A stretch of 64,000 bases of DNA from an uncultured Acidobacteriota bacterium (GCA_963822895.1 CAWGJI010000014.1:51337-115336), one strand, 5' to 3'. Counted from the stretch's first letter, positions 8,676-38,342 are shown. Notes: generated by a model not told the origin, from the letters alone. Translations and numbers: made by a program.

Positions 8676-8688
8676 AGGTCTTCAGTCG

Positions 8689-17983: not shown

Positions 17984-17987
17984 GCCT

Positions 17988-18027: not shown

Positions 18028-18061
18028 AGTCCCGACCCCGATGCATCACCGGCAAGAACTC

Positions 18062-19141: not shown

Positions 19142-19311
19142 GAGCGCGGTCGTCCTTTCTGGAGTTGGTCGTGATGCGTCAAGGAGAGCGCCTTGACAAG
19201 GGTAACAGGCATCACTACGGTGGTACTAGTTACGGTACTAGTTCCATACATCCCAAACTGTAGCACGGCTTGCCTGGCGTGACTATGGAGGAGCAGTCGG
19301 AGAGAGACGGC

Positions 19312-20352: not shown

Positions 20353-20524
20353 AGAAAGGAAGCCGCCAATCGATTCGACCCATCGACAGGGGAAGGACGC
20401 CCCTGTTCGACCAAGCGAAATCTCGAGAGCGTCTGGCCTGGGCGAGCGGCACGGTCCGGGGCCGGCCCGTCTGAGCCAGAAGCATGACCAGAGAGACCAC
20501 TAACCAAGCAAACAGGGAGGAGAG

Positions 20525-21916
20525 ATGATGAAGTTTCGACATGGAAGGTACTTGCGTTCCTTCCTGATTGTGGCGCTCGGGCTCGTGCTCGTTGCCGGAT
20601 GCGCCTCGGGCTCGAATGAGCCGGGGAGCTCGACAACTCAGGCGACCGAGGCCACGACGACCACTGCGGCAACCGGGTCGACAGAGACCACTGCCAGCCA
20701 GCTCGAGCCGGTCACGATCACCTATCTGGCCAGCCAGAACTGGGTGCTCGACTCTGAGAAGGAACTTGCACAGCAGTTCGAGGACGAGACCGGCATACAT
20801 GTCGACTATCAGATCATTCCTGCCGATCAGTACTTCAGTGTCCTCCAGACCAAGCTCGAAGCGGGCGGCGAGGGCATCGACATCTTCGGCGGCCAGAGTG
20901 GGAAGACCGACATCCAGCTCCAGCTGGGAGTGGAAGAGAATGCCGTCCCTCTCACGGACCAAGAGTGGGTGCAGCGGATGGATCCACTGTCCACCGAGCA
21001 GGTCAGTCTCGATGGGGTGGTCTACGGCCTCACCATATGGGACACCGTCGGTGGCTCTTGGGTCGTGGTCTACAACAAGCAGATCTTCGCCGACAACGGG
21101 ATCGAGATCCCGAGCACCTACGACGAGTTCGCAGCCGTGTGTGACACGCTCCTCGGTGCGGGGATCACCCCGATCTATGAGCCGATCGCCGACGGTTGGC
21201 ACCACGTGCTCTGGTTCGCAGAGATGGGCCCGAACTACGCGGCCAACTCGCCGGACCTCTACGAGCGGCTGAACGCCAACGAGACGACCATGGCCGAGGA
21301 CCCAACCATGCAGCAGGATCTCAGCCAGCTGAGTGATCTCTACACGAATGGGTGCTTTGGCGACAACGCGTTCTCGGACGAATTCGCCAACACCGAGGCC
21401 ATGATGGCCAGTGGTGATTACGCCATGACGGTCAACCGCTTCGGCTTGCCGGCTCAGATCGAGGCGGCCTATCCCGAGGCGTCAGCAGACAATTACGGGT
21501 TCTTCTTGATCCCGCTCGCTGACAACCAGATCTGGAACGTGAACCCGGCAGCGCCCACCAAGTTCATCTACTCGGGCTCGGAGCACATCGATGCGGCCAA
21601 GGCCTACTTCGAGTTCCTGACCCGGCCGGAGAACCTGCAGTACACCCTCGACAACGAGGAGCAATTCGCACTGCTCGACTTCGACGGGGTGAGCTTCGAA
21701 TTGTCGGCTGAGCAGCAGGCGTTCGTCGATGCCTATCCAGACCAAGGCACCGTGCTCCAGACGGCAGTCAACTACGTCAACCCGCAGTGGATCGACATGG
21801 GCCAGGACATAGGGGCCATGCTCACTGGTGCCGAAACGCCGGAGCAGGTGTTGGAGACGATCGACGGTCGTCGCACCGACATGGCCAAAGCCGCCGGAGA
21901 CCCTGGATGGGAATGA
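20525..21916 (+). CDS. ABC sugar-transporter substrate-binding lipoprotein (SBP family 1).
   Basis: The signal and lipobox 'LVLVAGCASG' are followed by a Thr-rich linker. Confidence 0.8.
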   Translation: MMKFRHGRYLRSFLIVALGLVLVAGCASGSNEPGSSTTQATEATTTTAATGSTETTASQLEPVTITYLASQNWVLDSEKELAQQFEDETGIHVDYQIIPADQYFSVLQTKLEAGGEGIDIFGGQSGKTDIQLQLGVEENAVPLTDQEWVQRMDPLSTEQVSLDGVVYGLTIWDTVGGSWVVVYNKQIFADNGIEIPSTYDEFAAVCDTLLGAGITPIYEPIADGWHHVLWFAEMGPNYAANSPDLYERLNANETTMAEDPTMQQDLSQLSDLYTNGCFGDNAFSDEFANTEAMMASGDYAMTVNRFGLPAQIEAAYPEASADNYGFFLIPLADNQIWNVNPAAPTKFIYSGSEHIDAAKAYFEFLTRPENLQYTLDNEEQFALLDFDGVSFELSAEQQAFVDAYPDQGTVLQTAVNYVNPQWIDMGQDIGAMLTGAETPEQVLETIDGRRTDMAKAAGDPGWE

Positions 21917-21956
21917 GGCCACGACCCAGAAGTGGCGTCTGACCATCGCCTGAAGT

Positions 21957-21999
21957 GTATGCGGGACCTACCCGGTTCCTCCAGGGTAGGCCCGCATAC
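21957..21999 (+). promoter_or_regulatory. Long intercistronic stem-loop between the SBP gene and the permease gene.
   Basis: 'GTATGCGGGaCCTACCC-ggttcctcca-GGGTAGGCCCGCATAC' pairs about 16 bp with one bulge. Confidence 0.5.
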
Positions 22000-22126
22000 C
22001 GGACCCTCGGGTTGGGCAGACACCGGTCTTCTCGGTCCGGGGATGTCGCCCTGCGACCTTCGTGCCCAATCCACTGCATAGATTGAAAGCCCGACTCATG
22101 ACTGCTGATCGTCTTGTGGCGGGAAG

Positions 22127-23032
22127 ATGAGAGCCTTCTCTCGAAAGCCAGGTAGCCCGGTGAGTAAGTCGTATCCGTCTTACTTCTCCCTGGGCGCCCT
22201 GGTCCTCTACACGGCGTTCATCGTGGTCCCGAGTTTGATGGGCTTCTACTACTCGTTCACGAGTTGGAATCGGTTCTCGACCGACGTCAACTTCGTCGGC
22301 CTCGAGAACTTCAAAACGATCTTCGTCTCCAACTCGACGCTGTTCCACGCAATAACCAACACGGTGATCTTCACGGTCGTGACCATCGTCACAAAGACAG
22401 TCCTCGGGCTCTTGCTGGCATTGCTGGTATCGAAAGGGATCAGACGCCTTTCAACATTCCACCGAGCCGTCATCTACCTGCCTGCCGTGTTGCCGATGAT
22501 CGTCGTCGGAATCGTCTTCAAGTCGATCCTGAATCCGTCCACGGGGGTGCTCAACGAGTTCCTGAGGCCGATCGGACTCGATGCGTTGGCCTTGAAGTGG
22601 CTCACGGACCCGAACATCGCCTTGTATTCGATCGCTGCAGTGGATACCTGGAAGGGTGTCGGCTTCATCATGGTCCTGCTATTGGCTGGGATTCAGTCGA
22701 TCCCACGGGAGTATTACGAGGCTGCTCAGATCGACGGGGCCGGTCCCTTCAACGAGCTGAGGTCGATAACACTTCCCCTCCTGATGCCCGTCTTGACGGT
22801 GACGACCGTGCTGAACCTGCTGTACGGGCTCAAGGTGTTCGACAGTGTTTGGGTCCTCACCAACGGCGGGCCCGGGTATGCGACCGAGACCGTCTACACC
22901 ATCGTGTTCAAGGAATTCGCCCGAGGCCACTATGCGGTCAGCACCGCCCTCTCCACCGTCCTCTTCGTGATCATGACAACCGCCGGGGTGTTCCTGATCC
23001 GAAAGATGAACAGACAGGTGGACTACCTGTGA
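22127..23032 (+). CDS. Carbohydrate ABC-transporter permease (MalF-like).
   Basis: It has 6 TM helices and an EAA-like motif. Confidence 0.8.
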   Translation: MRAFSRKPGSPVSKSYPSYFSLGALVLYTAFIVVPSLMGFYYSFTSWNRFSTDVNFVGLENFKTIFVSNSTLFHAITNTVIFTVVTIVTKTVLGLLLALLVSKGIRRLSTFHRAVIYLPAVLPMIVVGIVFKSILNPSTGVLNEFLRPIGLDALALKWLTDPNIALYSIAAVDTWKGVGFIMVLLLAGIQSIPREYYEAAQIDGAGPFNELRSITLPLLMPVLTVTTVLNLLYGLKVFDSVWVLTNGGPGYATETVYTIVFKEFARGHYAVSTALSTVLFVIMTTAGVFLIRKMNRQVDYL

Positions 23033-23078
23033 GCTCCCACGTCCTGAGTGCTCGGCCGATGGAAAGGGGTCGCTGATC

Positions 23079-23918
23079 GTGGCAACCGGCATCCGCGGTA
23101 TCCGACGATTCCTCAAGGGGGGAGTGAATCACACGATCGCGGCGGTGGTGAGCCTGATCATGTTGATTCCCATCTATCTCGTCTTGGTCAATTCCTTCAA
23201 GGACGGCATACAGTCCAGGTCGATGGGGGTCGACCTCCCCACCAGCTGGCAATTCGACAACTACCTCACCGTCATCGACGAAGGCAAGCTCGGCCAGGCC
23301 TTCGCCAACAGCCTGATCTACACGGTGCTGGCGACCGTCCTCTGTGTCCTCTGCGCCACCGCAGCCGCCTTCGTTCTGTCCAGGAACCGGAGCAGGATGA
23401 ACCGGTTCTGGTACTTCTTCCTGGTGGTCGGGATCGCGATCCCGCTCAACTATGTGACGATGACCAAGGTCATGCAGGTGACCCATCTCGTCAACAGTCA
23501 GCTCGGGATGATTCTCCTGTACGCCGCGTTCAAGATCCCCTTTGCCGTGTTCGTCGTGTACGCATTCGTTCACACCGTCCCGAGAGAGATCGACGAGGCC
23601 GGGATCATCGACGGTTGCTCGCCACGTCAGCTCTTCTGGTCGATAATGATGCCCCTCTTGCGGCCGGCCTGGATAACGGTCGGGGTCTTGACGTTTCTCG
23701 ACCTGTGGAGTGAGTTCATCATGCCCCTCTACTTCCTGAGCAGCTCCGACAAATGGCCGATGACGCTGGCGGTGTACAACTTCTTTGGCATATACGAGGC
23801 GAACTGGAATCTGGTTTCGGCCGACGTCGTATTGACGATTCTTCCCGTGGTCTTCGTATTCGTCTACGGCCAGCGGTATATCATGTCGGGTATCACGACC
23901 GGTGCGGTCAAGGGATAG
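23079..23918 (+). CDS. Carbohydrate ABC-transporter permease (MalG-like).
   Basis: It has 6 TM helices and 'EIDEAGIIDGCS'. Confidence 0.8.
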   Translation: MATGIRGIRRFLKGGVNHTIAAVVSLIMLIPIYLVLVNSFKDGIQSRSMGVDLPTSWQFDNYLTVIDEGKLGQAFANSLIYTVLATVLCVLCATAAAFVLSRNRSRMNRFWYFFLVVGIAIPLNYVTMTKVMQVTHLVNSQLGMILLYAAFKIPFAVFVVYAFVHTVPREIDEAGIIDGCSPRQLFWSIMMPLLRPAWITVGVLTFLDLWSEFIMPLYFLSSSDKWPMTLAVYNFFGIYEANWNLVSADVVLTILPVVFVFVYGQRYIMSGITTGAVKG

Positions 23919-24896
23919 CCCCATCAGACACAAGCCGCTCGGTAACACAGGTCTGGACGTCTCGGAACTGAGTTTCGGCGGTTCCGCACTCGGTGACTCC
24001 TACGGCGACGTCGAAGCCGACGTCGGCCATCGAAGCCGTTCGATACGCCATCGACAACGGCATCAACTTCATCGACACCTCACCGTTCTACGGAGACACC
24101 CTCTCGGAACGGCGGCTCGGCGAGGCGCTACAGGACGGGTTTCGGGACCGTGCCATCCTGGCCACCAAGGCGGGTCGTTACGGCAGCGGCTCCGGCAGCT
24201 TCGACTACAGCCATGACCGGATCATGAGATCGTGGGAGGAGAGCTCCAGACACCTCGGAACCGACTACATCGACCTCTATCAGCTACACGATGTCGAGTT
24301 CGTGCCGCAAGAAGAGATCGTGGAGCACGCCTGGCCCGCAATGGTCCGATTGAGAGCAGAGGGCCTGGTCGGTCACATAGGAATCACCGGCTATCCGTTG
24401 CAACATCTCGCCCGTCTCGCCCGAGATCTCGACCCAACCCCGGAGACCATCCTCACCTACTGCCATTGCGATCTGCTGAACACGACGTTCCAAGATGTTC
24501 TCCTCCCTACCACCGATGGCTCTGGGAATTGGCGTTGTCAACGGATCCGTCACGCACATGGGAGTCCTGACCGAGGCAGGCGCCCCAGACTGGCATCCCG
24601 CCCCGCCCGAGGTCCATGAGATCGGGCGGAAGGTCGTCGAACACGTCCGAGCCCATCGCTCCAGTGTCACCGATGTGGCATTGCTCTTCGCCATGGCCCA
24701 TGAAGGTATTGCAACGACGTGTGTCGGCATGAGATCGGTCGACGAGGTCAAACAGAACCTCGACCTGCTGGGCCGGCAGCTCGATCCGGACCTCCTGGAT
24801 GCGATCGAGGAGCTGGTGGCCCCGGTCCGGAACCTCAACTGGGCACAGGGGATTTCTGAGTACAACGATCCTGGATCGGTCCCGGCCAGGCGATAG
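23902..24896 (+). pseudogene. Aldo/keto reductase split across three reading frames by two apparent +1 frameshifts.
   Basis: Track ORFs 23902 (frame 1), 23993 (frame 2) and 24495 (frame 0) together make one AKR. They read 'LGNTGLDVSELSFGGSALG' → 'AIEAVRYAIDNGINFIDTS' → 'GIGVVNGS'. Confidence 0.6.
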
Positions 24897-24960
24897 CTGC
24901 ATCCTCCCGGGCCGTTGACCACAGCGATGTGGTGGAAAAGACCCGGCGACCTGGGCCCGG

Positions 24961-25836
24961 CTAGCTGGAACCCGGCTCGTCGTCGCCTAGATATGTGGTG
25001 ACGGCATTGAGACCCAGAATCGAGTCGATGCCGTCACCGGCCAACTCGGTCAGAGTCTCCACGGCGACGTGGAACACCTCCTCATAGCTGGCGGCCAGCG
25101 TGCACACCGGCCAATCGGATCCGAACATCAGACGTTCGGGCCCGAACGTCTCCACCACAGTCCCGACATACGGTCTCAGGTCACCCGGCGTCCATGACGT
25201 CCAGCTGGCCTCGGTGACGAGCCCGGATATTTTGCACATTACGTTCGGCAGCTTTGCGATCTCGGACATGAGGGAGACCCAGGGCTCGGTCTGTCCTGTT
25301 TCGATGGGAGGCTTTGCCATGTGATCAACCACGAATCTGAGACCCGGGAACCGCCGCGCCACCTCGGTGGCCGCCGGCAACTCGCGAGATCTGACCAGGA
25401 GGTCGTATGACAGACCCGCTTGCTCCACGGCGGCCAGTCCCCGGGCCACCTCGTCACGAAGAAGCCATTCGGGGTCAGGCTCGTCATGGACCGGGTGGCG
25501 GATACCAACCAGCTTGTCGCCGTCCTGCCTCTCCAGGATCTCACCGATCGTTTCGGAGACGCGAGCTTCTGTGAGGTCGACCCAACCGACGACGCCTGCG
25601 ATCCAGCTGGTTTGGGCGGCCGTCTCCAAAAGGTTGGCTGTCTCGTTGAGCTCCGTCCGAGCCTGGACGACGATGGTGGCCGTGACGCCCGTGGCTCTGA
25701 GATGAGGCTCGAGGTCGGCGGTCCCATAGGGTCTGCTCAAGGCCAGGTGGTCTCCTGTCATCCAGGGGTAGTCGGCGATTTCGGGGTCCCACAGATGGTG
25801 GTGGGCGTCGACAATCGGAGGCGAAACAGCCCTCAT
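24961..25836 (-). CDS. Amidohydrolase-2-family sugar lactonase.
   Basis: 'IVDAHHHLWDP' is the Amidohydro_2 signature. The gene is in an operon with a sugar-acid dehydratase. Confidence 0.65.
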   Translation of the reverse strand: MRAVSPPIVDAHHHLWDPEIADYPWMTGDHLALSRPYGTADLEPHLRATGVTATIVVQARTELNETANLLETAAQTSWIAGVVGWVDLTEARVSETIGEILERQDGDKLVGIRHPVHDEPDPEWLLRDEVARGLAAVEQAGLSYDLLVRSRELPAATEVARRFPGLRFVVDHMAKPPIETGQTEPWVSLMSEIAKLPNVMCKISGLVTEASWTSWTPGDLRPYVGTVVETFGPERLMFGSDWPVCTLAASYEEVFHVAVETLTELAGDGIDSILGLNAVTTYLGDDEPGSS

Positions 25837-26855
25837 GCGGTCGAGCCAACCGACTCCCGGTCCGTCGCAACTCCTTCCTCGATCACCAGGCCATGGTCCT
25901 CAGGGATGAGAGCTCCTCGAGCGTGAAGGTCAACGAAGAAGCGAACCGTGGCGTCGATGCCCTCGCGGAGCGGGGTCACCGATGGAGGCCCGAGGAGTTC
26001 CAGACCGCTCGTGTCGACGTCGTCCGGGAACGGAATCGGGTCCTCGCCGGCGAATACCCCTTCGCCCGATGGCCCGAGGATCTCACCGAGAATGGAGACG
26101 AGTTCGGGGATGGTGGCATGAACGCCGTTGAGGTTGAAGACGAGAGCACCCTCGATCGGGGTCTCGACGGCCGTGAGGAGCGCCCGAGCGACGTCGGCGG
26201 CGTAGTGGAAGAGCGTGCTGCCCCCGAATCCGATCTCGTATCGACACCCCAACACGGCGGCGAGCATCGCCCGTGTCGGTGAGCTGGTGAGCCCGCGGTC
26301 CCGGCCCGGCCCGTAGACGGTCATGGGTCTGATCCCGATGCTGGGGAGGTCGAAATCATGCCAGTACGCCCGAGCGGTGCCTTCATTGGCGAGCTTGTAG
26401 ACGCCGTAATGACTGGTCGGTCGGGGGACAGCATGCGCCTCGATGCGACCGCCTGGCTGATCGAACACTGCGATCGAGCTGGTATAGACCAGCTTGGTGA
26501 TGCCGAGGCGACGTGCCGCTTCGAATAGGTTGACGGTCCCCACCACATTGACCCGGGCGCCTCCTGGTGGGTCCGCCCGACAGAAGGGCAGCTGCAGGGC
26601 GGCGAGGTGGATGATCCGATCGACGTCGTTGTCGACCATGGCAGCCTCCAGGGCGGCGAGGTCCGTTATGTCGGCGGCGACCAGGCGAACTCCCTCCATC
26701 AGCTCTGACGAAGTCAGCAGACGCAAACGTCTGGTATCTCCCGATGGATCGAGGGCAACGACAGGCGTCCCAGCCTCGAGGAGCTGGCGCACGGTCCATG
26801 AACCGATGCAACCGAGGGCCCCGGTCACCAGGACCGAACCTTCGGCGCCGGTCAC
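25833..26855 (-). CDS. NAD-dependent epimerase/dehydratase-family protein.
   Basis: The Rossmann motif 'VLVTGALGCIGSW' and the YxxxK motif are present. Confidence 0.7.
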   Translation of the reverse strand: MTGAEGSVLVTGALGCIGSWTVRQLLEAGTPVVALDPSGDTRRLRLLTSSELMEGVRLVAADITDLAALEAAMVDNDVDRIIHLAALQLPFCRADPPGGARVNVVGTVNLFEAARRLGITKLVYTSSIAVFDQPGGRIEAHAVPRPTSHYGVYKLANEGTARAYWHDFDLPSIGIRPMTVYGPGRDRGLTSSPTRAMLAAVLGCRYEIGFGGSTLFHYAADVARALLTAVETPIEGALVFNLNGVHATIPELVSILGEILGPSGEGVFAGEDPIPFPDDVDTSGLELLGPPSVTPLREGIDATVRFFVDLHARGALIPEDHGLVIEEGVATDRESVGSTA

Positions 26856-28190
26856 TCAGACACCGTCGACCAGCGCTCCCGCCCACTCGCGACCCAACGG
26901 ATATGAGAACGCGTCGAGAGTCGAGGACAGCATCGTGATGCTCGTGCCCGGGGCGGTTGGTGCCTGGTAGTGGCCGTCACGGACGATGGCCGGATCGACG
27001 AAGTGCTCGTGGAGATGGTCGACGTATTCGGTGACACGGTTCTCCGTCGTGGTGCTCACGGCGAGGTAGTCGAAGATCGACAGATGCTGAACGTACTCGC
27101 AAAGCCCGACGCCACCGGCATGGGGACATACGGCCACGCCGAACTTGGCCGCCATGAGCTGGACCGCCAAAGCTTCGTTGATGCCGCCGAGCCGGCACGG
27201 GTCGATCTGTGCGAACCGGATTGCGTTGCTCTGAAAGAGCTGTTTGAACATCACCCGGTTGTGGCAATGCTCGCCGCTGGCGACGCCAATCCCCATCGGC
27301 TCCAGGGCGCGGGCGATCCGAGCATGGCCCAGGACATCGTCAGGGCTGGTCGGCTCCTCGATCCACCAAGGCCTGAACTCGGCGAGCTCAGTCACCCAGT
27401 CGATCGCCTGATCGACGTCCCAGACTTGATTGGCATCGAGCATGAGCACGCCCTCCTCCCCGATCTCCTCCCGGACGATCGCCGTCCGACGGAGATCCTC
27501 TCCCAGGTCGCGGCCGACCTTGAGCTTGAAGTGGCGCCAACCGTTGGCGATCCCTTCGCGGCACAACTCTCGCACGCGGTCGTCGGAGTAGCCGATCCAG
27601 CCCACCGACGTCGTGTAGGCCGGGTAACCGACCGAGAGGATGGATTCCAAGCGGTCCTCCCTACCGGTTTGCCCCGCCTGGAGGATTTCGAGTGCCTCCT
27701 TCGGAGTGAGGGCATCGCTGATGTACCGGAAGGGGATGCAGCGCACCAGCTCCTCGGGAGACATGTCGGCGAGAAGCATCCACAGCGGCTTCTTCTCGGT
27801 CTTGGCGAAAAGGTCCCAGACCGCATTGACGACCGCCGCCGTCGCCAGGTGGATGACACCTTTCTCGGGGCCGACCCAGCGCAGCTGACCGTCCTCGACG
27901 AGGGAGGTCCAGAATTTCCCCAGGTCCGCCGTAATCGACTCGAGATCGCGGCCCACGACGAGCGGGGCCAACGCCTCGATCGCGGCTACGCAAAGCTCGT
28001 TGCCACGGCCAGTGGTGAACGTCATCCCGTGACCGGAGAGCGCGGCATCATCGGTGTCGAGTACCAGATAGGCCGCTGAGTAGTCGGGCGCGTCGGTCAT
28101 TGCGTCCGAGCCGTCGAGGTTGCGCGACGTGGGAAATCGAATGTCAAAGGTGGCGATATCGACAATCTTCATTACAGCTCCAATCCGCAA
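26856..28190 (-). CDS. L-fuconate-dehydratase-like enolase-superfamily dehydratase.
   Basis: It is 444 aa long. The N-terminus 'DIRFPTSRNLDGSDAMTDAPDYSAAYLVL' is typical of the FucD subgroup. Confidence 0.6.
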   Translation of the reverse strand: MRIGAVMKIVDIATFDIRFPTSRNLDGSDAMTDAPDYSAAYLVLDTDDAALSGHGMTFTTGRGNELCVAAIEALAPLVVGRDLESITADLGKFWTSLVEDGQLRWVGPEKGVIHLATAAVVNAVWDLFAKTEKKPLWMLLADMSPEELVRCIPFRYISDALTPKEALEILQAGQTGREDRLESILSVGYPAYTTSVGWIGYSDDRVRELCREGIANGWRHFKLKVGRDLGEDLRRTAIVREEIGEEGVLMLDANQVWDVDQAIDWVTELAEFRPWWIEEPTSPDDVLGHARIARALEPMGIGVASGEHCHNRVMFKQLFQSNAIRFAQIDPCRLGGINEALAVQLMAAKFGVAVCPHAGGVGLCEYVQHLSIFDYLAVSTTTENRVTEYVDHLHEHFVDPAIVRDGHYQAPTAPGTSITMLSSTLDAFSYPLGREWAGALVDGV

Positions 28191-28247
28191 GGGTGGCCGG
28201 GCCGACGGTGTAGCCCCGCGGCCCGGCCTGCCCCTTGGTGCGGTCTG

Positions 28248-29255
28248 TTACGCGAAGTCGGCGACGTTGTCGGGCGTCACCACCGCAGTGCCCGTGTCGA
28301 CGTTCGGCTCGACAGGATTGCCCAGGACGGCCTGGTAGAGAGTCTCCATGCCCAACTCACCCATCTTCGGTGGGAACTGGGCGATCGAGGCGTCCTCTCT
28401 GCCTTCCTGAATCGCGGTCACCTCATCGGGTAGCGCGTCGAAACCGACGACGACGATGTCCTCAGGTGCGATGCCCGCGTTGTCGATGGCCTCCATTGCG
28501 CCGAGGATCGGTGGGCCACATGCGCCGTAGATCGCATCTACGTCCGGGTTGGCGGTGAGGAGATCCTCAGCAGCCGAGACGCCCATGACTTGATCGCAGT
28601 CGGTCGGAGCCTGGCCGACAATGGTGATGTCGGCATCGCCCAGACCCTCGATCATCCCGTTGACACGGTCGTCGAGCGCAGGCACGCCAACTCGGCCTTC
28701 GAGGACAGCCAGTGTCGAGCCAGGCGCGAGGTTCTCCGCCAACCATTCACCAGCCAGCACGCCACCCTGGTAGTTGTTCGTTGCGACAACGGCAGTCTTC
28801 CCCGCCCAGTCGGGGAGGTCGTTGTCGATGAGGATGACCTCGACCCCTGCCTCGACCGCAGCATCCAATGCCGGGATGACGGCCTCACCGGTCGGTGTGA
28901 TGGCGATACCGTCCACACCCTGAGTCACCATCGACTCGATCAGGGCGATTTCTCCCTCGTCGTCGGAAGCCGACTCACCCATGCCCGTGATAAGCTCGAC
29001 ATCAGGGTGCTGGCTCGCCCATTCCTTTGCGGCATCCTCGATCACGAAGAAGAAGTCGACGGGGAACTTGGTGATCAGCCCCAGCTTGTACGTGTCGCCT
29101 GCGGGTTCGGTGTCCGAGACCGTGGTAGTAGTCACGGTTTCGGATGGTTCGGTTGCAGTAGTCGATGTTTCGTCGGTGCCTGCGCCGCCGCAGGCGACCG
29201 CAAGCATCGCGATAACGACGCTGACCAGCAGCCAACGCCCTTTTGTCCATTTCAT
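28248..29255 (-). CDS. Sugar ABC-transporter substrate-binding lipoprotein (ribose/xylose-type periplasmic binding fold).
   Basis: The signal and lipobox 'AVACGG' are followed by a Thr-rich linker. Confidence 0.8.
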   Translation of the reverse strand: MKWTKGRWLLVSVVIAMLAVACGGAGTDETSTTATEPSETVTTTTVSDTEPAGDTYKLGLITKFPVDFFFVIEDAAKEWASQHPDVELITGMGESASDDEGEIALIESMVTQGVDGIAITPTGEAVIPALDAAVEAGVEVILIDNDLPDWAGKTAVVATNNYQGGVLAGEWLAENLAPGSTLAVLEGRVGVPALDDRVNGMIEGLGDADITIVGQAPTDCDQVMGVSAAEDLLTANPDVDAIYGACGPPILGAMEAIDNAGIAPEDIVVVGFDALPDEVTAIQEGREDASIAQFPPKMGELGMETLYQAVLGNPVEPNVDTGTAVVTPDNVADFA

Positions 29256-29348
29256 CTCTGGTTGTTCCTCTCTGATAGGCCTGTTTCGGCATCTGCTTGC
29301 GCACCCGGCGAGCTTCGATGCCCGCGGGCTCGTCCCAACTTCACCTCC

Positions 29349-30107
29349 TCAGCTATCACCTCCCACGATCATCGAGACGATCTCATCGCGTGAGCTCTCG
29401 CTCGGGAGGACTTCGCCCACCTTGTGGCCCCGTCTCATGACCATCGCCCGGTCGGCGACCTCCATGACGTGATCCATGGCGTGGGAGATCACGACGACGG
29501 CTTTGCCATCGTCTCGGAGACGGTGGATCAGGTCGAGGACCCTGCGCGCTTCGCGGACACCCAGAGCCGCGGTGGGCTCGTCGAGAATCACCAGACGTGC
29601 GGCAAAGGCGGTAGCCCTCGCCACGGCGACGGCCTGACGTTGGCCCCCGGACATCAGACCCACGGGCGCTTCCAGGTCGGGAAGGGTGACCTGGAGTCTG
29701 TCGAGAACGTCCCTCGTCGCCAAGGCCATGCTCTTGGTCCGCAGCAGACGCATCCCCATCGGAAGCCAGCTGGGTCCGGCTGTTTCCCTGCCGGCATAGA
29801 AGTTCGCCGACGGGCTCAGGTTGTCGAAGAGAGCCAGGTCTTGATAGACGGTCTCGATCCCCAAGGCCCTGGCGTCGGATGGGTCGTGGAGATGAACCTC
29901 GCTTCCATCGACTTCGATCGTGCCTGAGTCGAGCTGATGGACTCCACTCATGCATTTGATCAGCGTCGATTTTCCTGCCCCGTTGTCACCGAGAATCGCC
30001 AAGACTTCCCCGGCACGAACATCCACGTTCACGTCGTCGAGGGCCAGGACCCCGCCGAAGCGCTTCGTCCCACCTCGGACGGCAAGCGTTGGGGTTCCTG
30101 CGCTCAC
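29349..30107 (-). CDS. ABC-transporter ATP-binding protein.
   Basis: The Walker A 'GDNGAGKST', the signature 'LSGGQRQ' and the Walker B 'ILDEPT' are present. The GTG start overlaps the permease stop in a GTGA. Confidence 0.75.
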   Translation of the reverse strand: MSAGTPTLAVRGGTKRFGGVLALDDVNVDVRAGEVLAILGDNGAGKSTLIKCMSGVHQLDSGTIEVDGSEVHLHDPSDARALGIETVYQDLALFDNLSPSANFYAGRETAGPSWLPMGMRLLRTKSMALATRDVLDRLQVTLPDLEAPVGLMSGGQRQAVAVARATAFAARLVILDEPTAALGVREARRVLDLIHRLRDDGKAVVVISHAMDHVMEVADRAMVMRRGHKVGEVLPSESSRDEIVSMIVGGDS

Positions 30108-31208
30108 GTTCGGGCCGCCTGCATCAGGCGGAGCCGGTCTTCGAGTCGTCCCCGGAGCACGTCCGATTCGACGGCGACCAGGATCACCACACCCAGGACG
30201 ATCAATTGGAAGAAGGCATCGAGGTTGGCCAGGTTCATGGCGTTGCGGATGACTCCGATCATGATCGCCCCGACGATCGCATGGCCCACCTTTCCCCGAC
30301 CGCCGAGGAAGCTCGCCCCGCCAATGATGACAGCAGCGATGGCATCGAGCTCCGCGAGATTCCCGAATGTTGGGGCCCCTGCGTTGGTCCGCCCTGCGGT
30401 CAGGATCCCTGCGATGCCGGCGGCCAGCCCACTGAATGCATAAACCGAGATGAGGATCGCCGAGGTTGGTATCGCCGTCCGCCTTGCCGCCTCCGGGTTG
30501 CCCCCAACCGCATAGATCCACCGTCCCCACACGACCCGGTGCAGGAGCATCCAGACCGCGAACACGACCGCTACGACCACGAAAGTGGAGATGGGAAGCC
30601 AGCCGAGAATGGAGTCGCCTCCCACGGATCGGATGATCGGCGGCATGCCCTGGATGGGTCGGCCGTCCGATAGCCAGAGGGCGAGCCCCCTTGCCAAAGT
30701 GAGCGTTGCAAGCGTGACGATGAAGGGATGAGGTATCTGACCTTTCACGAAGAGCACGCCGTTGAACAGGCCGACCACGAGACCAGTCCCGAGCATGAGG
30801 GCGATGACCAGGATGCTCGGAGCCCCCTGCCTGGAAGACCACCGCTCCGACGACAGTCGCCAGGGCCAGGACGGAGCCGACAGACAGGTCGATGCCCCGA
30901 GTGATGATGACGAGCAGCTGACCCAGGGAGAGCACTGAGATGACGGCGGTCTGGGCGAGGACGTTCCCGATGTTGCGGGTGGTGAGGAAGACCGGGACCA
31001 GGAGCGATATCACGACGATCAGGGCAATGAGAATGAGGAGTGGGCCCGCCCGGAGCATGAGGAGAGCGACTTTTAGGGACCCCTCCAGTGACGGAGCCTG
31101 CTCGTCGCCCCGCCCGGTCGCTTCGCTGCCGGTCCTCGTTTCGGCAGACCGGGGGTCTGCCGTCTCGTTCAGGTCGGAGTCCCTTGAGCTCGTCACTGAA
31201 TCTGACAA
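30104..31208 (-). pseudogene. Ribose-type ABC permease disrupted by a +1 frameshift in a C5/G5 homopolymer.
   Basis: The N-terminal half lies in the frame of the 29349..31208 track ORF and the C-terminal half in the 30104..30796 frame. Removing one C from the C5 run at ~30823-30827 restores '...FQAGAPSILVIALMLGTG'. Confidence 0.6.
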
Positions 31209-31318
31209 CCTATCTGCCTCCTCTTGCGGCGAGTGATCGGGTGTATGTGTCCGATATTGGCCCGCTCGGCCCTCATTTGGCTACAATAGGATCTCAAACA
31301 TAGGATGTCTAGTGGAAT

Positions 31319-32027
31319 GTGAGGAGACTGGTGTCGGCTCCGTTGACTGAAGCGGCGATACGTCAGATCCGCGAGTTGATTGCCAGCGGCCAACTCCTCC
31401 CCGGTTCGAAACTCGCCCCCGAGGCGGAGCTCGCTCTGAGTCTCGGTGCATCCCGGAACACCGTCAGGGAGGCCGTCCGCGGGCTCGTGATGGCGGGAGT
31501 CCTCGATGTTCGTCGTGGTGATGGGACCTATGTGACCAGTCTGCGCCCCGAGCAGTTGCTGGAGGGGATAGGTGCGGCGGCAGAGCTCATGTCCGAGGAC
31601 TTCTCCCTGGAATTGGTCCAAGTGCGCCGAATACTCGAGCCGGCGGCGACGGCATTGGCCGCGATGAGGATCGACGAGAGAGGCAATCGCAGAGCTGCAG
31701 ACGTTGCTCGACCGGATGCGCACAGCCGAGACCGAGGAGGCGCTGGTGCAGATGGACTCCGACTTCCATGCCGTGGTCGCCGCGGCCTCGGGGAACGTCA
31801 CACTCGCTTCCATGCTCGGTGGCGTCTCGATTCGGACGACTCGATCGCGAATATGGCGCGGCATCATCGAGGATGACGCCAAGGCTCAGACGATCGCACA
31901 ACACGCTGAGATCCTCCGCGCCCTACACGAGCGCGATCCGATCCTCGGAGAGGCCGCCGCTCTGGTTCACGTCGCGACGACCGAGGCCTCGGTGCGGCGA
32001 ATGATCGACGCATCGGGTAAGGGATGA
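31319..32027 (+). pseudogene. GntR/FadR-family regulator split by a +1 frameshift.
   Basis: The HTH half is in 31319..31876 and the FCD half in 31704..32027 in a different frame. Deleting one nt near 31680 restores 'RIDERAIAELQTLLDRM'. Confidence 0.6.
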
Positions 32028-32103
32028 TTGGCCCGCCCGGTCCGCTCCGGCCGTGTAGCGCCTGAGAAAGGGCTGTTCGCTGCCACCGGCGTGGTTACCG
32101 CGC

Positions 32104-32868
32104 TCAGCGTCCCATCCATCCGCCGTCGACGATCAGGACGGTGCCATGAACGTAATCAGACGCCGAGGAGGCGAGGAAGACGGCGGCACCGGTCATATCG
32201 TCGGCGGTTCCCCAGCGGCCCGCGGGAATCCGCTCCAGGATCGCCGCCGATCTGACGGGGTCGTTGCGCAGGGCTTCGGTGTTGTCGGTCTCCATGTAGC
32301 CCGGGGCGATGGCGTTCACATTCACCCCATGGGACGCCCACTCGTTGGCGAGGGCTCTGGTGAGCCCGGCGATGCCGCTCTTCGAGGCCGTGTATCCCGG
32401 CACGGTGATGCCACCCTGGAAGCTGAGTAGCGAGGCGGTGAAGATGATTTTCCCGGACTGCCGTTCGACCATCTGCCGGCCGAGCTCGCGGGCGAGGATG
32501 AAAGGCGCGCTCAGGTTCACCTCGATTACATGATCCCACTCGTCGTCGCCGTGCTCGGTCGCGGGCCGTCGGATGATCGTGCCGGCGTTGCTCACCAGGA
32601 TGTCGATCGCCTGCCCCGCTTCGCCGAGCCATTCGATGAGGTTGTAGAGCGACTCGCGGTCGGAGAGGTCGCATCTCCGTCCGATGAAGGTTGATCCTTC
32701 GGCCTCCACTCGCTCCTGCACTTCCGAGCCTGTCTCTTCCTGGCCGGCAGAGACGGCTATCACGTCAGCACCGGCCCTGGCGAGCCCGACAGCCATCGCT
32801 TTGCCAAGGCCTCGTCGAGCACCTGTCACGAGGGCCGTCTTGCCACTCAGATCGATTACATAGGCCAA
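32104..32868 (-). CDS. SDR-family oxidoreductase, KduD-like.
   Basis: 'TALVTGARRGLG' and 'YTASKSGIAGLTRALA' are SDR motifs. Confidence 0.75.
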   Translation of the reverse strand: MAYVIDLSGKTALVTGARRGLGKAMAVGLARAGADVIAVSAGQEETGSEVQERVEAEGSTFIGRRCDLSDRESLYNLIEWLGEAGQAIDILVSNAGTIIRRPATEHGDDEWDHVIEVNLSAPFILARELGRQMVERQSGKIIFTASLLSFQGGITVPGYTASKSGIAGLTRALANEWASHGVNVNAIAPGYMETDNTEALRNDPVRSAAILERIPAGRWGTADDMTGAAVFLASSASDYVHGTVLIVDGGWMGR

Positions 32869-32878
32869 TCGAGCCTCC

Positions 32879-33631
32879 CTACTTCGCCAGGTAGGAGGTG
32901 ACGCTTGCCAGGTCGGCGACCAGACGTTCCTCGAGCTGGGGCGTGAGTCGATCCTTGAACAGGGTGGTGCTCACCGCGTACCGGGGCTCGTCCCCCTGAG
33001 TCTTGACCGCCACAGCCAGGCAGACCACGTTGGGTGCCGCCTCCTCGTTGTCGATCGCATGACCGCGTTCGCGGATGTTTGCCAGGTCCTCTGATAGCGA
33101 CGCCAGGGTGGCGTGGGAGCGATCTGTGAGACGGCGGAGCGGCTCGGTGAGAGTCGCCGCCAGCTCATCGGGGTCGAGCATGGCGAGCATCGCCTTTCCG
33201 ATCGCCGTCGACGATGCGGGAAGCCGCTTCCCGACGCCGGACGTGAGCGCAATCGGCTGGACACCGTCGTGGCGAGCGAGGAACAAGACGTCTTCTTCTT
33301 CGAGGATGGCGAGTTGGGAAGTCTCGCTCGATAGGGCATCGAGCGTTGGGACGAAGTCGCGAAAGCGTTGGACTGCATCGTCGCTGCGGAGAAACACCGA
33401 GGCGAGCTCTACCACGGTAGGGCCGATCGAGAATCCGGCGCCCGTGCGGCGGGCCAGCCCGGTTTCGACCAGGGCGGCGAGGATGTTGGTGACCGACGAG
33501 TGGGGTATGCCGGTGGCACGAGCGATCTCCGAGATCCTCGGGTAGGAGTCGGGCTGGCTCGAGATGACGTCGAGGACGGCCGCGGCACGAACGACGGCGG
33601 GAGCGGGCGTGCCCGGTGCAGCAGAACTCAT
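32879..33631 (-). CDS. IclR-family transcriptional regulator (KdgR-like).
   Basis: An N-terminal winged HTH is followed by an IclR effector domain. Its ATG at 33631 sits in an ATGA with an out-of-frame TGA. Confidence 0.7.
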   Translation of the reverse strand: MSSAAPGTPAPAVVRAAAVLDVISSQPDSYPRISEIARATGIPHSSVTNILAALVETGLARRTGAGFSIGPTVVELASVFLRSDDAVQRFRDFVPTLDALSSETSQLAILEEEDVLFLARHDGVQPIALTSGVGKRLPASSTAIGKAMLAMLDPDELAATLTEPLRRLTDRSHATLASLSEDLANIRERGHAIDNEEAAPNVVCLAVAVKTQGDEPRYAVSTTLFKDRLTPQLEERLVADLASVTSYLAK

Positions 33632-34660
33632 CGCGAGTCCACCAAGGAGCTTGACGATCTCCTCCCCTGAACCGAGGCGCTCGATTGCCTTCGGCATGTC
33701 CTCAAGCGGCACGACGTCGGTGATCAGCGAGTCGACGGGTATCACGCCCGTGGCGATCAGACCGACCGCATCCTCGAAATCGCGGCGCTCGTAGACCCTG
33801 GCCCCGCGTAACTCGAGTTCCTTCCAAAAGACGGCCATGAAGTCGACAGGAGGCGGTTGGGTGTGGATCGCCACGATGACGCCGCGGCCGCGCACGGCCA
33901 ACACATCGGTGAGCGCACGAACCCCGGACAACGAGCCCGAGACCTCAAAAGCCTTGTCGGCGCCTCTCCCGCCGGTCCACTCGTGGACTGTCTCGGCCAG
34001 GGTGTCGACGGTTGGATCGACGGTACGCAATCCCAGCTTGCCGGCGAGTCCGCGACGAAACGCCGACACTTCGGAGAGGAGGACATCGGCGCCGGCATTC
34101 GTGGCCACGAGTGAGATGAGTAGGCCGATCGGCCCGCCGCCGATCACGACGACCTGATCCGACGCTTTCACTTCACCACGACGAACATCATGCACCGCAA
34201 CGGCAGTCGGCTCGGTGAGGCTCGCCGCTTCGAGAGGCACATCGTCGGGGAGGCGGACGAGTAGTCGGGCTGGGACGTTCCAGTGTTGTTGAAGGGATCC
34301 TGGAGAGTCGATCCCGACGAAGTCGAGGTTGTGGCAGACGTGGTTGTGCCCGACGTCACACGCCGGGCAGTCGTCACACCAATCGAGCGGCATCACCGTT
34401 ACGTGATCGCCGCTGCGCCAATCGGCGACGTTCGATCCGACCGAATCGATCGTCCCCGACATCTCGTGTCCTATCGGCCACGGTGAGGTGACTCGTTGAT
34501 CCATGGCGCCGTGCGCGATCTTGAGGTCGGTGCCGCAGATCCCGGTGAAGGCCACGGCGATCCTGACCTCATCTGGGCCAGGCTCGATCGGCTCATACGA
34601 TCGCGGCTGGAAAATCCCATTGCCGTGATAGTCGATTGCAAGAGAACGCCATGGCCGAGT
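33632..34660 (-). CDS. Zinc-dependent alcohol dehydrogenase (medium-chain family). It has no in-frame stop before the IclR gene and no canonical start in frame.
   Basis: 'GICGTDLKIAHG' and 'GGGPIGL' are medium-chain ADH motifs. The 743-aa track ORF fuses this gene to the IclR gene. An ATG-GCG start exists only in the +1 frame. Confidence 0.5.
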
Positions 34661-34717
34661 GCCAGTATACTGCAGGATTAACAGTATATTGTCACCATAG
34701 AGTCGCCAAGGACTGCA

Positions 34718-35389
34718 ATGGCCCGTCACACGAAGACCCAAGTGCTCGACACGGTCGCCCGGGAGGGTGTCATCCCGGTGTTCCACCATCCGGACGTTGG
34801 GACCGTGATCGAAGTGGCCAACACACTGGTGGGAGGCGGACTCACCACGCTGGAATTCACCAACCGCGGCGATGGCGCCATCAGCGTGCTCGGCGAGCTG
34901 ATCGCATGGGCGCAAAGAGAGCGCCCCGAGTTGATCGTTGGCGCCGGCTCGATCGTCGACGGAGCATCGGCAGCCCATGTTCTCGATCTCGGTGCCAGCT
35001 TTGTCTTCGCCCCGAGCTTCTCTGAGGATGTAGCCGATGCCTGCAATGTGCGCAATGTGCCTTACGTCCCCGGATGTGGCACCGTCACCGAGATTCTCCG
35101 TGCGTACCAAGCCGGATGTGATCTGGTCAAGCTGTTCCCGGCCGATTCAATCGGCGGCCCCAACTTCCTCAGGGCGGTGCGGGCCCCGTGTCCTTGGGTC
35201 CGTGCGATACCGACCGGCGGGGTCGAGCCAACGGCTGTCTCACTGCGCCCTTGGTACGAAGCCGGTGCTCCGGCGGTGGGTATCGGGTCGAAGCTGCTTT
35301 CGAAGGATCTGATTGGTGACCGTGACTTCGAGGGTCTTCAGAAGCGGGTCGCCGCCACGGTGAGCGCGGTGGCCGAGGCCAGGAGCTGA
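34718..35389 (+). CDS. eda: KDPG/KHG aldolase.
   Basis: 'EGVIPVFHH...LTTLEFTNR...GAGSIV' is the Eda-family signature. Confidence 0.8.
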   Translation: MARHTKTQVLDTVAREGVIPVFHHPDVGTVIEVANTLVGGGLTTLEFTNRGDGAISVLGELIAWAQRERPELIVGAGSIVDGASAAHVLDLGASFVFAPSFSEDVADACNVRNVPYVPGCGTVTEILRAYQAGCDLVKLFPADSIGGPNFLRAVRAPCPWVRAIPTGGVEPTAVSLRPWYEAGAPAVGIGSKLLSKDLIGDRDFEGLQKRVAATVSAVAEARS

Positions 35390-35438
35390 GCGATGGCCCT
35401 CAGCATCAAGTCACGCCGACTCCGCTCGATGGGACTGC

Positions 35439-36491
35439 GTGAGCGTTGGCGAAGTGATGCTCCGCCTCGATCCGGAGTGGGGGCGGGTACGGACGGCCCG
35501 ACATTTCAGGGTCACCGAAGGCGGAGGGGAATACAACGTCTCTCGTGCCCTTCGCAAGGTCTTCGGCATGAGGACGGCAGTGGTCACGGCACTGGTCGAC
35601 AACGAGGTCGGTCATCTCGTGGAGGACCTGATGATGACTGGTGGAGTCGACCTACGTCACGTCAAGTGGGTTCCTCATGACGGGATCGGGCTCGAGTCGC
35701 GGGTGGGACTCAACTTCACCGAGAAGGGTTTCGGTATCCGTCCCGCACTTGGTGTGTCCGACCGGGCCAACACCGCCGTCTCGCAACTCGTGCCGGGCGA
35801 CATCGACTGGAACCAACTCTTTGACGTGGAGGGAGTGCGTTGGCTTCACACAGGCGGCATCTTCGCTGCCTTGTCCGAGACGACTGCGGAGGTCGCCCTC
35901 GAAGCCATGCAAGCTGCGCACGCTGCCGGCACGGTTGTCTCTTACGACCTCAACTATCGACCGTCGCTGTGGAAGCCTCGAGGTGGCCGAGCCCGTGCCA
36001 TCGAAGTGAACCGCATGCTGGCTCCACACGTCGACGTCATGATCGGCAACGAGGAGGATTTCACGGCAGCGCTCGGATTCGAAGTGCCGGAGCTCGACGA
36101 GGAGATCACCAGTCTCGACCCCTCGGCGTTCAAGGCGATGATCGGGGACGTCATCGCCCGGTTTCCCAATCTGGAGATGGTCGCCACGACCATGCGAAAC
36201 GCGAAGTCAGCCGGTTTCAACGACTGGGGCGCAATCCTCTATGCAGACGGAATGTTCCATGAGTCCCGTCTTCGTCCCGACCTGGAGATATTCGACCGGG
36301 TCGGCGGTGGCGACGGTTTCGCCAGCGGCATGATCTGGGCGCTTCTCGACGGTCGCCACGTTTCCGAAGCGGTCGAAGTCGGGGCTGCCCATGGCGCGTT
36401 GACCATGACGACACCGGGCGACACGTCGATGGTGACCGTGGATGAGGTGATGAGGGCGGTCACCGCCCACGGCGCTCGGGTGGTGCGATGA
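35439..36491 (+). CDS. kdgK: PfkB-family sugar kinase (2-dehydro-3-deoxygluconokinase-like).
   Basis: The PfkB motifs 'GGGEYNV' and 'DRVGGGDGFASG' are present, with a GTG start. Confidence 0.75.
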   Translation: MSVGEVMLRLDPEWGRVRTARHFRVTEGGGEYNVSRALRKVFGMRTAVVTALVDNEVGHLVEDLMMTGGVDLRHVKWVPHDGIGLESRVGLNFTEKGFGIRPALGVSDRANTAVSQLVPGDIDWNQLFDVEGVRWLHTGGIFAALSETTAEVALEAMQAAHAAGTVVSYDLNYRPSLWKPRGGRARAIEVNRMLAPHVDVMIGNEEDFTAALGFEVPELDEEITSLDPSAFKAMIGDVIARFPNLEMVATTMRNAKSAGFNDWGAILYADGMFHESRLRPDLEIFDRVGGGDGFASGMIWALLDGRHVSEAVEVGAAHGALTMTTPGDTSMVTVDEVMRAVTAHGARVVR

Positions 36492-36719
36492 AACCCGCCA
36501 CCCATTCGCAGGTGGGGATGCCACCTCGCCGCCTGGCCGAACGCCGCCTCCCCAACGATGCCCGGTGCAACCTCGTCCGAGGCTCGGGCCAGAGAGCCCT
36601 ACACGCTGTACAGCTGGAGTGGTGCCTGACCGTGACTTGTCACCTAACTACCTAACGGCCCGAATCCCCAACAACCACGGTCTTCACAAGGCAGCACGCC
36701 CTGATTCGTTGAGGGGGGA

Positions 36720-38335
36720 CCGCTGTCGCTGACGAGGTGGTCACGCTGTGGCAACAGCATTGGCGGGGGTGCCACTCTGGTCGCGAGAATGAGACTCGGA
36801 GCTCTCGGTCCCTGACCAAGCTGAAGGCTCATGCCGATCGAGACGCAAATCGAATGCCGGAGGGAAGCCTGTTGTCACGCATGCAGAGTCACATGTTGAT
36901 TTCTTCATGAGCCGTCCCGCCAATGCTCTTTCAGTGGGAATCATCGGCGGGGGCATTCTCGGGCTGGCAGTCGGCCGCGAGCTCACGAAACGCAATCCGG
37001 GCATCGAGGTCGTCGTCTTCGAAAAAGAGAGACGGCTGGCGGTCCACCAGACCGGGCACAATTCCGGTGTCGTCCACGCCGGCATCTACTACAAGCCTGG
37101 TTCCCTCAAGGCTCAGCTCTGCGCGCGGGGGAGGACCCTGCTCCGCGAATACTGCGCCGAGCACCAGCTTCCATACGACCAATGCGGGAAGCTGGTCGTG
37201 GCCGTCGACCCATCCGAGATGGGCCGGCTGGAGAACCTGGAGAAGACTGCCTCCGAGAACGGTGTGCCCGGTCTCAGGCGGGTCGATGGCGGCGAGATCG
37301 CCGAGATCGAGCCACACGCTGCAGGGCTGGCCGCGCTTCATTCTCCGACCACGGCCATCACCGACTATGTCGCAATCGCACGATCGTATGCACGCGACAT
37401 CGAGGAGGCAGGGGGGCGGATCCTGCTTTCGTCCCAGGTGACAGGCATCGAGCGCCGGGTCGGGTCGATCGAGGTGCGGACCGAACGAGATGCGCGCAAG
37501 GTGGGTCGGCTGGTGGTCTGCGCGGGTCTCCAGTCAGACCGGGTCGCCGAGCCGGTGGACGGCGAGAGCGCCCCACGAATTGTCCCTTTCCGAGGGGAGT
37601 ACATGAAGGTGGTCGACTCCAAGCGCGACCTGGTGCGAGGATTGATCTATCCAGTACCCGATCCTCGCTACCCGTTCTTGGGCGTTCATTTCACCTCCAT
37701 GGTTTCCGGCGACCTGGAGGTCGGCCCCAATGCCGTGCTTGCGCTGAAACGCGAGGGCTATCGCAGACGGGACGTGAATCTCGCAGATGTTGGCAGCATC
37801 GTCTCTTGGCCGGGGTTTTGGCGTATGGCTGCATCGAATTGGCGAGCAGGCATCGAAGAAGTCTGGGGCTCGATCTCCAAACGCGCCTACATGAAGAAGG
37901 CCAGTCGCTATGTGCCCGAGATCGGCCCAGACGATGTGGTCAGGGCGAGAGCCGGGGTGCGGGCCCAAGCGCTCGATCGGGACGGGTCGTTGGTCGACGA
38001 TTTCAGGATCTTCGAGAGCGATGGGGTGCTCACGATCCGCAATGCCCCATCGCCGGGGGCCACATCGAGTCTCGCCATCGCCGAGTACATCGTCAATCAG
38101 ATGAAAGACTTCCGGTGAGCGCCATCGATGGTCTTGGCCCCCCGGGTGGTGGGCGATACCGACGACGGATATTTCGATGTGGACACGAGTCTCGAAAGGG
38201 CGGCACTCGTGGCGTCCTGACTACGGAGTCGATTTGAAATCGTCGCCGGTTTGACCGTTGTTTGACGCCGCCAACCGGACTCAGCGGAATCCACAACAAC
38301 CACAGCAGCCCCCGGCCCAACATGTCCTAGTTCGT
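36720..38335 (+). repeat. lhgO segment, copy 2.
   Basis: It is homologous to 14640..16290. Confidence 0.8.
36907..38118 (+). CDS. lhgO: L-2-hydroxyglutarate oxidase, copy 2.
   Basis: It is a 403-aa near-identical paralogue of 14837..16057. Confidence 0.7.
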   Translation: MSRPANALSVGIIGGGILGLAVGRELTKRNPGIEVVVFEKERRLAVHQTGHNSGVVHAGIYYKPGSLKAQLCARGRTLLREYCAEHQLPYDQCGKLVVAVDPSEMGRLENLEKTASENGVPGLRRVDGGEIAEIEPHAAGLAALHSPTTAITDYVAIARSYARDIEEAGGRILLSSQVTGIERRVGSIEVRTERDARKVGRLVVCAGLQSDRVAEPVDGESAPRIVPFRGEYMKVVDSKRDLVRGLIYPVPDPRYPFLGVHFTSMVSGDLEVGPNAVLALKREGYRRRDVNLADVGSIVSWPGFWRMAASNWRAGIEEVWGSISKRAYMKKASRYVPEIGPDDVVRARAGVRAQALDRDGSLVDDFRIFESDGVLTIRNAPSPGATSSLAIAEYIVNQMKDFR

Positions 38336-38342
38336 CGGCGCG

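Follow-up and report, generated by a model that had tools for sequence, protein, structure and literature searches.

Five genes in a sugar-acid catabolic island of an uncultured Acidobacteriota bacterium are split between reading frames. Has this pathway decayed, or have the frameshifts been introduced by the assembly? The island is part of the 64,000 nt stretch which we have analyzed (the window; GCA_963822895.1, CAWGJI010000014.1:51337-115336), which belongs to a contig of 734,539 bp, unannotated in NCBI and ENA, of a metagenome-assembled genome (MAG). A first reading of this sequence, which we call the original prediction, had proposed either pseudogenisation or insertion-type sequencing error. 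Our comparison with related assemblies favours error. With a probability of about 0.88, the frameshifts would be insertion-type consensus errors of the MAG assembly, patchy and extending beyond the island, and not a sign of pathway decay. Each lesion is a +1 insertion specific to the window, and its removal restores a normal gene. As biology, the broken genes are not a real feature.

Frame breaks in the window

The split genes code for an aldo/keto reductase (AKR), a ribose-type ATP-binding cassette (ABC) permease, a GntR/FadR-type regulator, a Zn-dependent alcohol dehydrogenase (ADH) and a 2-keto-3-deoxygluconate (KDG) kinase, and every shift is +1. Pfam matches are divided accordingly. The Aldo_ket_red profile of the AKR is found as positions 15–149 in the open reading frame (ORF) 23993–24619 and positions 182–290 in ORF 24495–24896, while the BPD_transp_2 profile of the permease has positions 2–53 in the 31208 frame and 55–268 in the 30796 frame. 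The regulator has its GntR helix-turn-helix (HTH) in ORF 31319–31876 and positions 33–124 of FCD in ORF 31704–32027. Since the stop codon of the ADH is out of frame, a single ORF of 743 aa holds ADH_N, ADH_zinc_N, HTH_IclR and IclR_C.

A Viterbi segmentation based on codon usage, trained on the long ORFs of the window, switches frame on the same strand at 24025/26, 24519/20, 30813/14 and 31677/78. The tblastn junction in the GntR gene is found at 31678/31680. Other switches (3054/4280, 13897/14286, 16286/16668, 39757/40217/40489, 47302/47705 and 49058/50052) were discarded, they correspond to ordinary adjacent genes: a response regulator and a histidine kinase, PIN/antitoxin (toxin-antitoxin) pairs, and a PadR/two-transmembrane (2TM)/sensor set. 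DNA alignment to close relatives places the lesions to 1–2 nt, as follows (L numbers designate the relatives described below):

24027, plus strand: extra C, first AKR shift; window GTCGG[C]CATCG, L084 GTCGG-CATCG (GGCC vs. GGC)
24517, plus strand: extra T, non-homopolymer, second AKR shift; window CACCGA[T]GGCTCTG, L084 CACCGA-GGCTCTG
30818, minus strand: extra C (as read on the plus strand), permease shift; window GATGCT[C]GGAGCCCCC, L081/L082 GATGCT-GGAGCCCCC
31678–31679, plus strand: one extra base, GntR shift; window GACGA-GA-GAGG, relative GACGA-C-GAGG
33647, minus strand: extra G, ADH, five codons before the stop; window CCAAG[G]AGC, L105/L106 CCAAG-AGC
34648, minus strand: extra G, ADH codon 2 (coding ATGG[C]GTT); window GAAC[G]CCATGG, L105/L106 GAAC-CCATGG
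35416/35417, plus strand: extra C, kinase codon ~8 (CACGC[C]GAC); compared with L105, L106 and L081/L082

Most of this had been anticipated. The original prediction listed at least four broken genes, and Pfam matches and alignments confirm the four which it named, AKR, permease, GntR and ADH, all split where it said. Its two AKR shifts through three frames (~24010–24030 and ~24500–24530) are the extra bases at 24027 and 24517, its GntR shift near 31680 is the one at 31678/9, and the start and stop of the ADH, suspected to be out of the body frame at ~34650 and ~33650, are displaced by the insertions at 34648 and 33647. The single permease shift does exist, but not in the C5 run at 30823–30827, which relatives also have: The extra C is five positions away, at 30818. 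It was fully right in stating that each correction consists in removing a single inserted nucleotide. The seventh shift, at 35417 in the kinase, was missing from that list, it is found just beyond the range considered.

The insertion at 33647 destroys the ATGA stop/start overlap between the ADH and the IclR gene, and fuses both reading frames; the corrected ADH ends in ...IVKLLVDSR*. A genuine ADH-IclR fusion was rejected, as the relatives have separate genes of 340 and 250 aa with the ATGA overlap. We also rejected a start codon in the body frame of the ADH, which would spare it a 5' frameshift: This frame has no ATG, GTG or TTG downstream of the start of the divergent aldolase gene, and relatives begin at the same ATG, one base shorter. 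In the kinase, an in-frame GTG at 35439 would yield a product of 350 aa. Residues 1–365 of the corrected kinase align to relatives as distant as 83%.

Comparison with relatives

The comparators are six independent assemblies with 91–99% nt identity, and no fewer than four unrelated pipelines produced them (JGI, NCBI MAGs, Logan and ENA):

L081, L082: JGI metagenome contigs, window 24879–36491, 91.3% nt identity
L084: NCBI MAG GCA_049799655.1, window 20236–25131, 97.9% nt identity
L105: same MAG as L084 (GCA_049799655.1), window 32352–36513, 98.5% nt identity
L106: Logan assembly of SRR28041608, window 33467–36153, 98.6% nt identity
L085: ENA contig, 98% identity, covers the patch at 8 kb

At every break the window is exactly one base longer than the relatives which cover the site, and the relatives agree with each other. 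In L081/L082 the permease has 367 aa, GntR 229 aa, IclR 250 aa, ADH 340 aa and the kinase 365 aa. The AKR is intact in L084, and the window AKR has 94.8% protein identity to this orthologue. ADH and kinase are intact in L105 and L106, and IclR is intact in L105 as well. If we also count distant relatives, from genome and metagenome scans, a single frame is read across the site in 15 of 15 relatives for the permease, 15 of 15 for GntR, 6 of 6 for both ADH sites and 7 of 7 for the kinase. The comparison of orthologous loci which the original prediction had recommended thus finds intact genes: No lesion is shared with any relative, including the haplotypes with 98–99% identity, among L081, L082, L084, L105, L106 and L085. 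Another genome, L087 (GCA_036374335.1), was discarded as an arbiter, only proS is common to it and the window.

It might be argued that the window is right and that its relatives carry deletion errors. At least one comparator, L085 ("contig_22022"), may have been assembled from long reads too, and a split IclR is found in the MAG L001, whose contig reaches 1.14 Mb. The relatives' versions, however, give full-length genes which keep colinearity with both Pfam domains and distant homologues, which those of the window do not, and the unrelated pipelines concur at every site. This makes the idea extremely improbable; for the island sites it is effectively refuted. The split gene of L001 (MFD02242.bin.2.132, 15120–15873) is a syntenic IclR orthologue, with residues 1–76 in frame 3 and 60–250 in frame 1.

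Restoration of the genes and selection

When the seven bases are deleted we obtain ORFs of 330 (AKR), 367 (permease), 231 (GntR), 340 (ADH) and 365 aa (kinase). They have no internal stops and no gaps relative to the relatives, and in four of the five genes the length equals that of the relatives. For the AKR there are 24 homologues with at least 64% identity and 311–361 aa; the closest ones are named L-galactose dehydrogenase by JGI.

The ratio of nonsynonymous to synonymous substitution rates (dN/dS), calculated against L081 or L084, is 0.157 for the AKR, 0.066 for the permease, 0.040 for GntR, 0.147 for the ADH and 0.065 for the kinase. The eight intact neighbours have values of 0.043–0.240. 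Among these, the five genes in 24961–30107 give gap-free full-length alignments to L081 (dN/dS 0.04–0.24). Our results indicate a sugar-acid pathway which is intact and under purifying selection.

These data bear on genuine pseudogenisation, in which the strain would have dropped the pathway very recently and would be accumulating real frameshifts. In its favour, the island has a higher density of lesions than most of the window, two genes have two lesions each, as expected of genes which are already dead, and the island is a divergent, strain-variable segment, where identity to L084 goes from 100% to 92%. We consider this explanation unlikely. No lesion is common to any relative, even at 98–99% identity, eight other genes in these operons are undamaged, and the corrected genes have no nonsense substitutions or other damage, with no sign of relaxed selection in dN/dS values which are no higher than those of their neighbours. 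Relative to L105, the ADH has seven substitutions (one nonsynonymous and six synonymous) and two frameshifting insertions. In natural evolution substitutions far outnumber indels, so two frameshifts against seven substitutions are very unlikely to be natural. Of the two possibilities offered by the original prediction, decay is the one which the evidence speaks against, in view of the unshared lesions, the normal dN/dS and the absence of nonsense mutations.

The spectrum of indels also argues against pseudogenisation. Real spectra include deletions and longer events, but all the lesions are 1-nt insertions: The frame-disrupting coding indels in the window are 11 insertions of this type and no deletion (p~0.001). 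If we consider all one-base indels relative to the closest relatives (L084, L085, L088, L089 and L105, each with at least 97.9% nt identity), it is the window which has the additional base in 16 of 18 (p=0.0013). Compared with L105/L106, all six indels in 4.2 kb are insertions in the window, three of them coding and three intergenic. On the other hand, intergenic indels in both directions are found relative to the more distant L081 and L086. This is what real divergence should give, and the one-sided part is an excess specific to the window.

Insertions outside the sugar-acid genes

The original prediction considered the frameshifts as a feature of the sugar-acid island. This was not borne out: There are at least two patches, the other one at ~6.5–8.8 kb, and spacers are also hit. 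About 51 kb of the window may be compared with close relatives, and the insertions found outside the sugar-acid genes are:

7919–8645, minus strand: gene for a 242-aa hypothetical protein, one extra base at ~8083
8757, 8770 and 8788, plus strand: three 1-nt insertions in a span of 31 nt, towards the 5' end of a peroxiredoxin-like gene
32875: intergenic insertion, relative to L105
34696 and 34705: intergenic insertions, in the ADH-aldolase promoter region
50583: single intergenic insertion in 10.8 kb at 99.3% identity to L088

The L085 protein matches the 242-aa hypothetical with residues 1–189 in frame –3 (97%) and 188–242 in frame –1 (98%). The insertions at 8757, 8770 and 8788 amount to a net +3: The reading visits each of the three frames and then returns. 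It is not credible that three real insertions arose independently over 31 nt; noise in the local consensus accounts for them easily. Further intergenic extra bases are found at 6507 and 8668.

The lesions are therefore not confined to a dispensable unit, which also counts against pseudogenisation. Spacers have lesions of the same type, and so have unrelated genes at a distance of 16 kb, where the lesions at 8.1–8.8 kb (8083 and 8757–8788) include three within 31 nt.

Their distribution is significantly non-uniform. Coding insertions are found in two patches, 8083–8788 (n=4) and 24027–35417 (n=7). The 12.6-kb island has seven, when 2.7 are expected at the rate of the whole window (P=0.02), while 38290–60123 has none, with 4.7 expected (P=0.009). 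There is no coding indel relative to close relatives in 17028–24026 and 38290–60123. The insertion rate is ~0.2 per kb overall, and ~0.6 per kb in the bad patches. Both patches coincide with lowered identity to MAGs of the same species: Identity to L084 falls smoothly from 100% at 20–21.5 kb to 92% at 24.5 kb, and identity to L085 dips to 95–97% near 6.5 and 8.5 kb.

In the 20–25 kb region, as identity to L084 falls, identity to a Logan contig (L083) rises from 97.7% to 99.2%. This mosaic suggests either that strains which occur together have recombined, or that the consensus is chimeric where the island meets its flank.

The non-coding insertions are also relevant to functional recoding, in which programmed +1 ribosomal frameshifting or transcriptional slippage would give full-length proteins from the window as it stands. 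All shifts have the same direction (+1), as this idea would have it. Nevertheless, the seven sites share neither a slippery motif nor a context, none of the orthologues has the shift sites, and matching insertions are present in non-coding DNA, so that we give recoding a practically negligible chance.

Origin of the extra bases

We infer that the extra bases arose in sequencing or consensus building, and not in the cell. The source assembly was probably made from long reads, as suggested by a MAG contig of 734 kb. In patches, which may reflect local low coverage or strain microdiversity, the consensus would gain one spurious base every ~1–2 kb, whether in a gene or in a spacer. Gene callers would then see a split AKR, permease, GntR, ADH and kinase, together with an ADH-IclR fusion. 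In the organism itself, the L-fuconate/L-galactonate-type and KDG modules would most likely be unbroken and maintained by purifying selection. It is documented that consensus indels in long-read assemblies create false pseudogenes, and homopolymer indels are stressed in the Nanopore literature (PMC9262707); the collapsing of allelic variants adds insertion/deletion (INDEL) errors (PMC8445201).

About half of the insertion sites extend one base to two, the rest are non-homopolymer. We have not seen by eye any motif shared by these sites, such as a methylation motif. One possible source, the writing of both alleles of a single-nucleotide polymorphism (SNP) into the consensus, was rejected: It drew on a relative with 91% identity, compared with which several insertions fall at third codon positions, but at four of the six sites the 98.5% haplotype does not differ from the window over ±15 nt. 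Only the regional link between insertions and microdiversity is left, with no support at the level of sites.

Several points weigh against consensus error. It rests on a comparison of assemblies, and the long-read platform is deduced from the length of the contig. For the sites at 30818 and 31678, no independent assembly of the same haplotype was found (the nearest one has 91% nt identity); in haplotype scans the best values were 76% among genome contigs and 92% aa (GntR) among metagenomes. The clustering of lesions, with seven in the island and none in 38–60 kb, is also predicted by decay. Finally, an association with homopolymers was not found: None of the insertions lies in a long homopolymer, unlike the typical consensus error of Nanopore assemblies. 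Such sites speak against the classic homopolymer error, not against random insertion error.

The extra bases might also be real if this lineage had an unusual and strongly insertion-biased mutation process which adds single bases outside homopolymers and in patches, and which had recently hit five sugar-acid genes and others before any other decay. We find this quite improbable, and consensus error is still our preferred explanation.

Gene content of the island

The island at 23.9–36.5 kb is an ordinary sugar-acid catabolic neighbourhood, with an L-fuconate/L-galactonate-type module and a KDG module. We read its genes in the light of two established routes, that for KDG and the non-phosphorylative one for L-fucose/L-galactose. 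The G+C content of the window is ~62%, and several of its proteins have near-identical cluster mates which are named as MAG proteins of an "Acidimicrobiia bacterium". The genes are:

23902–24896, plus strand: AKR, three frames in the window, Pfam fragments
24961–25836, minus strand: Amidohydro_2 lactonase-like protein, intact
25833–26855, minus strand: NAD epimerase/dehydratase family protein, intact
26856–28172, minus strand: L-fuconate-dehydratase-like protein of the enolase superfamily, intact
28248–29255, minus strand: sugar-binding protein of a ribose-type ABC system, intact
29349–30107, minus strand: ABC ATPase of the ribose-type system, intact
30104–31208, minus strand: ribose-type ABC permease (BPD_transp_2), two frames, 367 aa after correction
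31331–32027, plus strand: divergent GntR/FadR-type regulator (GntR HTH and FCD), two frames
32104–32868, minus strand: short-chain dehydrogenase/reductase (SDR), KduD-like, intact
32879–33631, minus strand: IclR regulator, intact
33628–34652, minus strand: Zn-dependent ADH, with start, body and stop in three frames, 340 aa when corrected
34718–35389, plus strand: 2-keto-3-deoxy-6-phosphogluconate/2-keto-4-hydroxyglutarate (KDPG/KHG) aldolase, intact
35393–36491, plus strand: KDG-kinase-like PfkB protein, first ~8 codons out of frame, 365 aa when corrected

The spacer between ADH and aldolase, which separates the divergent ADH-IclR-SDR and aldolase-kinase operons, contains a perfect inverted repeat, TATACTG-N9-CAGTATA, at 34666–34688. 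It is a plausible candidate for the operator of the IclR (KdgR-like) regulator. The spacer insertions at 34696 and 34705 adjoin this repeat.

Other features of the window

The peroxiredoxin-like gene which carries three of the insertions belongs to the AhpC/TSA family (8689–9270, plus strand). It has an in-frame TGA at 8917–8919, in the motif FYRGDW-[TGA]-PYC, with UxxC for CxxC. Both the TGA and the downstream frame are kept in the 98% relative L085, and the Pfam AhpC-TSA match continues across this codon. A stable hairpin which starts from the TGA at 8917 has –25.9 kcal/mol (z=–2.4), with an apical stem GUCAAC/GUUGAC. From these sequence features, the gene is a candidate selenoprotein with a bacterial-type selenocysteine insertion sequence (SECIS). 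No tRNA-Sec or sel genes are found in the 64-kb window.

Two copies of a ~405-aa oxidoreductase dependent on flavin adenine dinucleotide (FAD; Pfam DAO) are found at 14837–16057 and 36907–38118, both on the plus strand, and both match the same L086 gene with 92.6–93.3% nt identity. The segment at ~36513–38341, which includes the second copy, is present in L086 and absent in L105, where the kinase is directly followed by the guanylate-cyclase gene: It is a presence/absence polymorphism.

A toxin-antitoxin cluster is found at 12738–16958. It includes a MazF/PemK toxin (12738–13145) and two similar PIN-domain toxins (13897–14286 and 16286–16675) which flank the first DAO copy; a CcdA/ribbon-helix-helix (RHH)-like antitoxin (16668–16958) pairs with the second of them. 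Since synteny with the 99.75% relative L089 stops at 17028, this toxin-antitoxin/DAO region may be an inserted segment.

Consequences for annotation

The value of these results is a warning about the assembly and its consequences for annotation. If the frameshifts are taken at face value, the MAG would count as a genome in which the L-fucose/L-galactose-type sugar-acid pathway and the KDG module are not functional, and an ADH-IclR fusion protein, which is spurious, would be assigned to it. The whole 734-kb contig is flagged for patchy insertion errors. Because of such errors, pseudogene counts, gene-length statistics and claims of gene loss need frameshift-aware gene calling or polishing first.

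Comparison with known systems

The type case of programmed +1 ribosomal frameshifting is prfB. The shifts in the window are similar to this system in their +1 direction. They differ from it as follows: There is no conserved site or shared motif, the orthologues are unshifted, and several unrelated genes are affected.

Host-restricted bacteria which undergo reductive evolution, for instance Mycobacterium leprae or Salmonella Typhi, lose pathways as frameshifts accumulate. The window resembles genuine decay of this kind in that several genes of one catabolic neighbourhood are broken, some of them more than once. It differs in that there is no relaxed selection, no nonsense mutation, no deletion and no sharing of lesions, while unrelated genes and spacers are hit and the direction is fully polarised.

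The third system is that of false pseudogenes in long-read assemblies, either PacBio or Nanopore (PMC9262707; PMC8445201). The window differs from it in having insertions exclusively, mostly outside homopolymers, and we infer its membership. There is agreement in the following features: Single-base indels fragment conserved genes, and their removal restores the ORFs. Coding and non-coding DNA are affected, whatever the function of the genes, in a very long MAG contig. As in those assemblies, the lesions are patchy, and they are found in regions which are divergent from other genomes of the same species.

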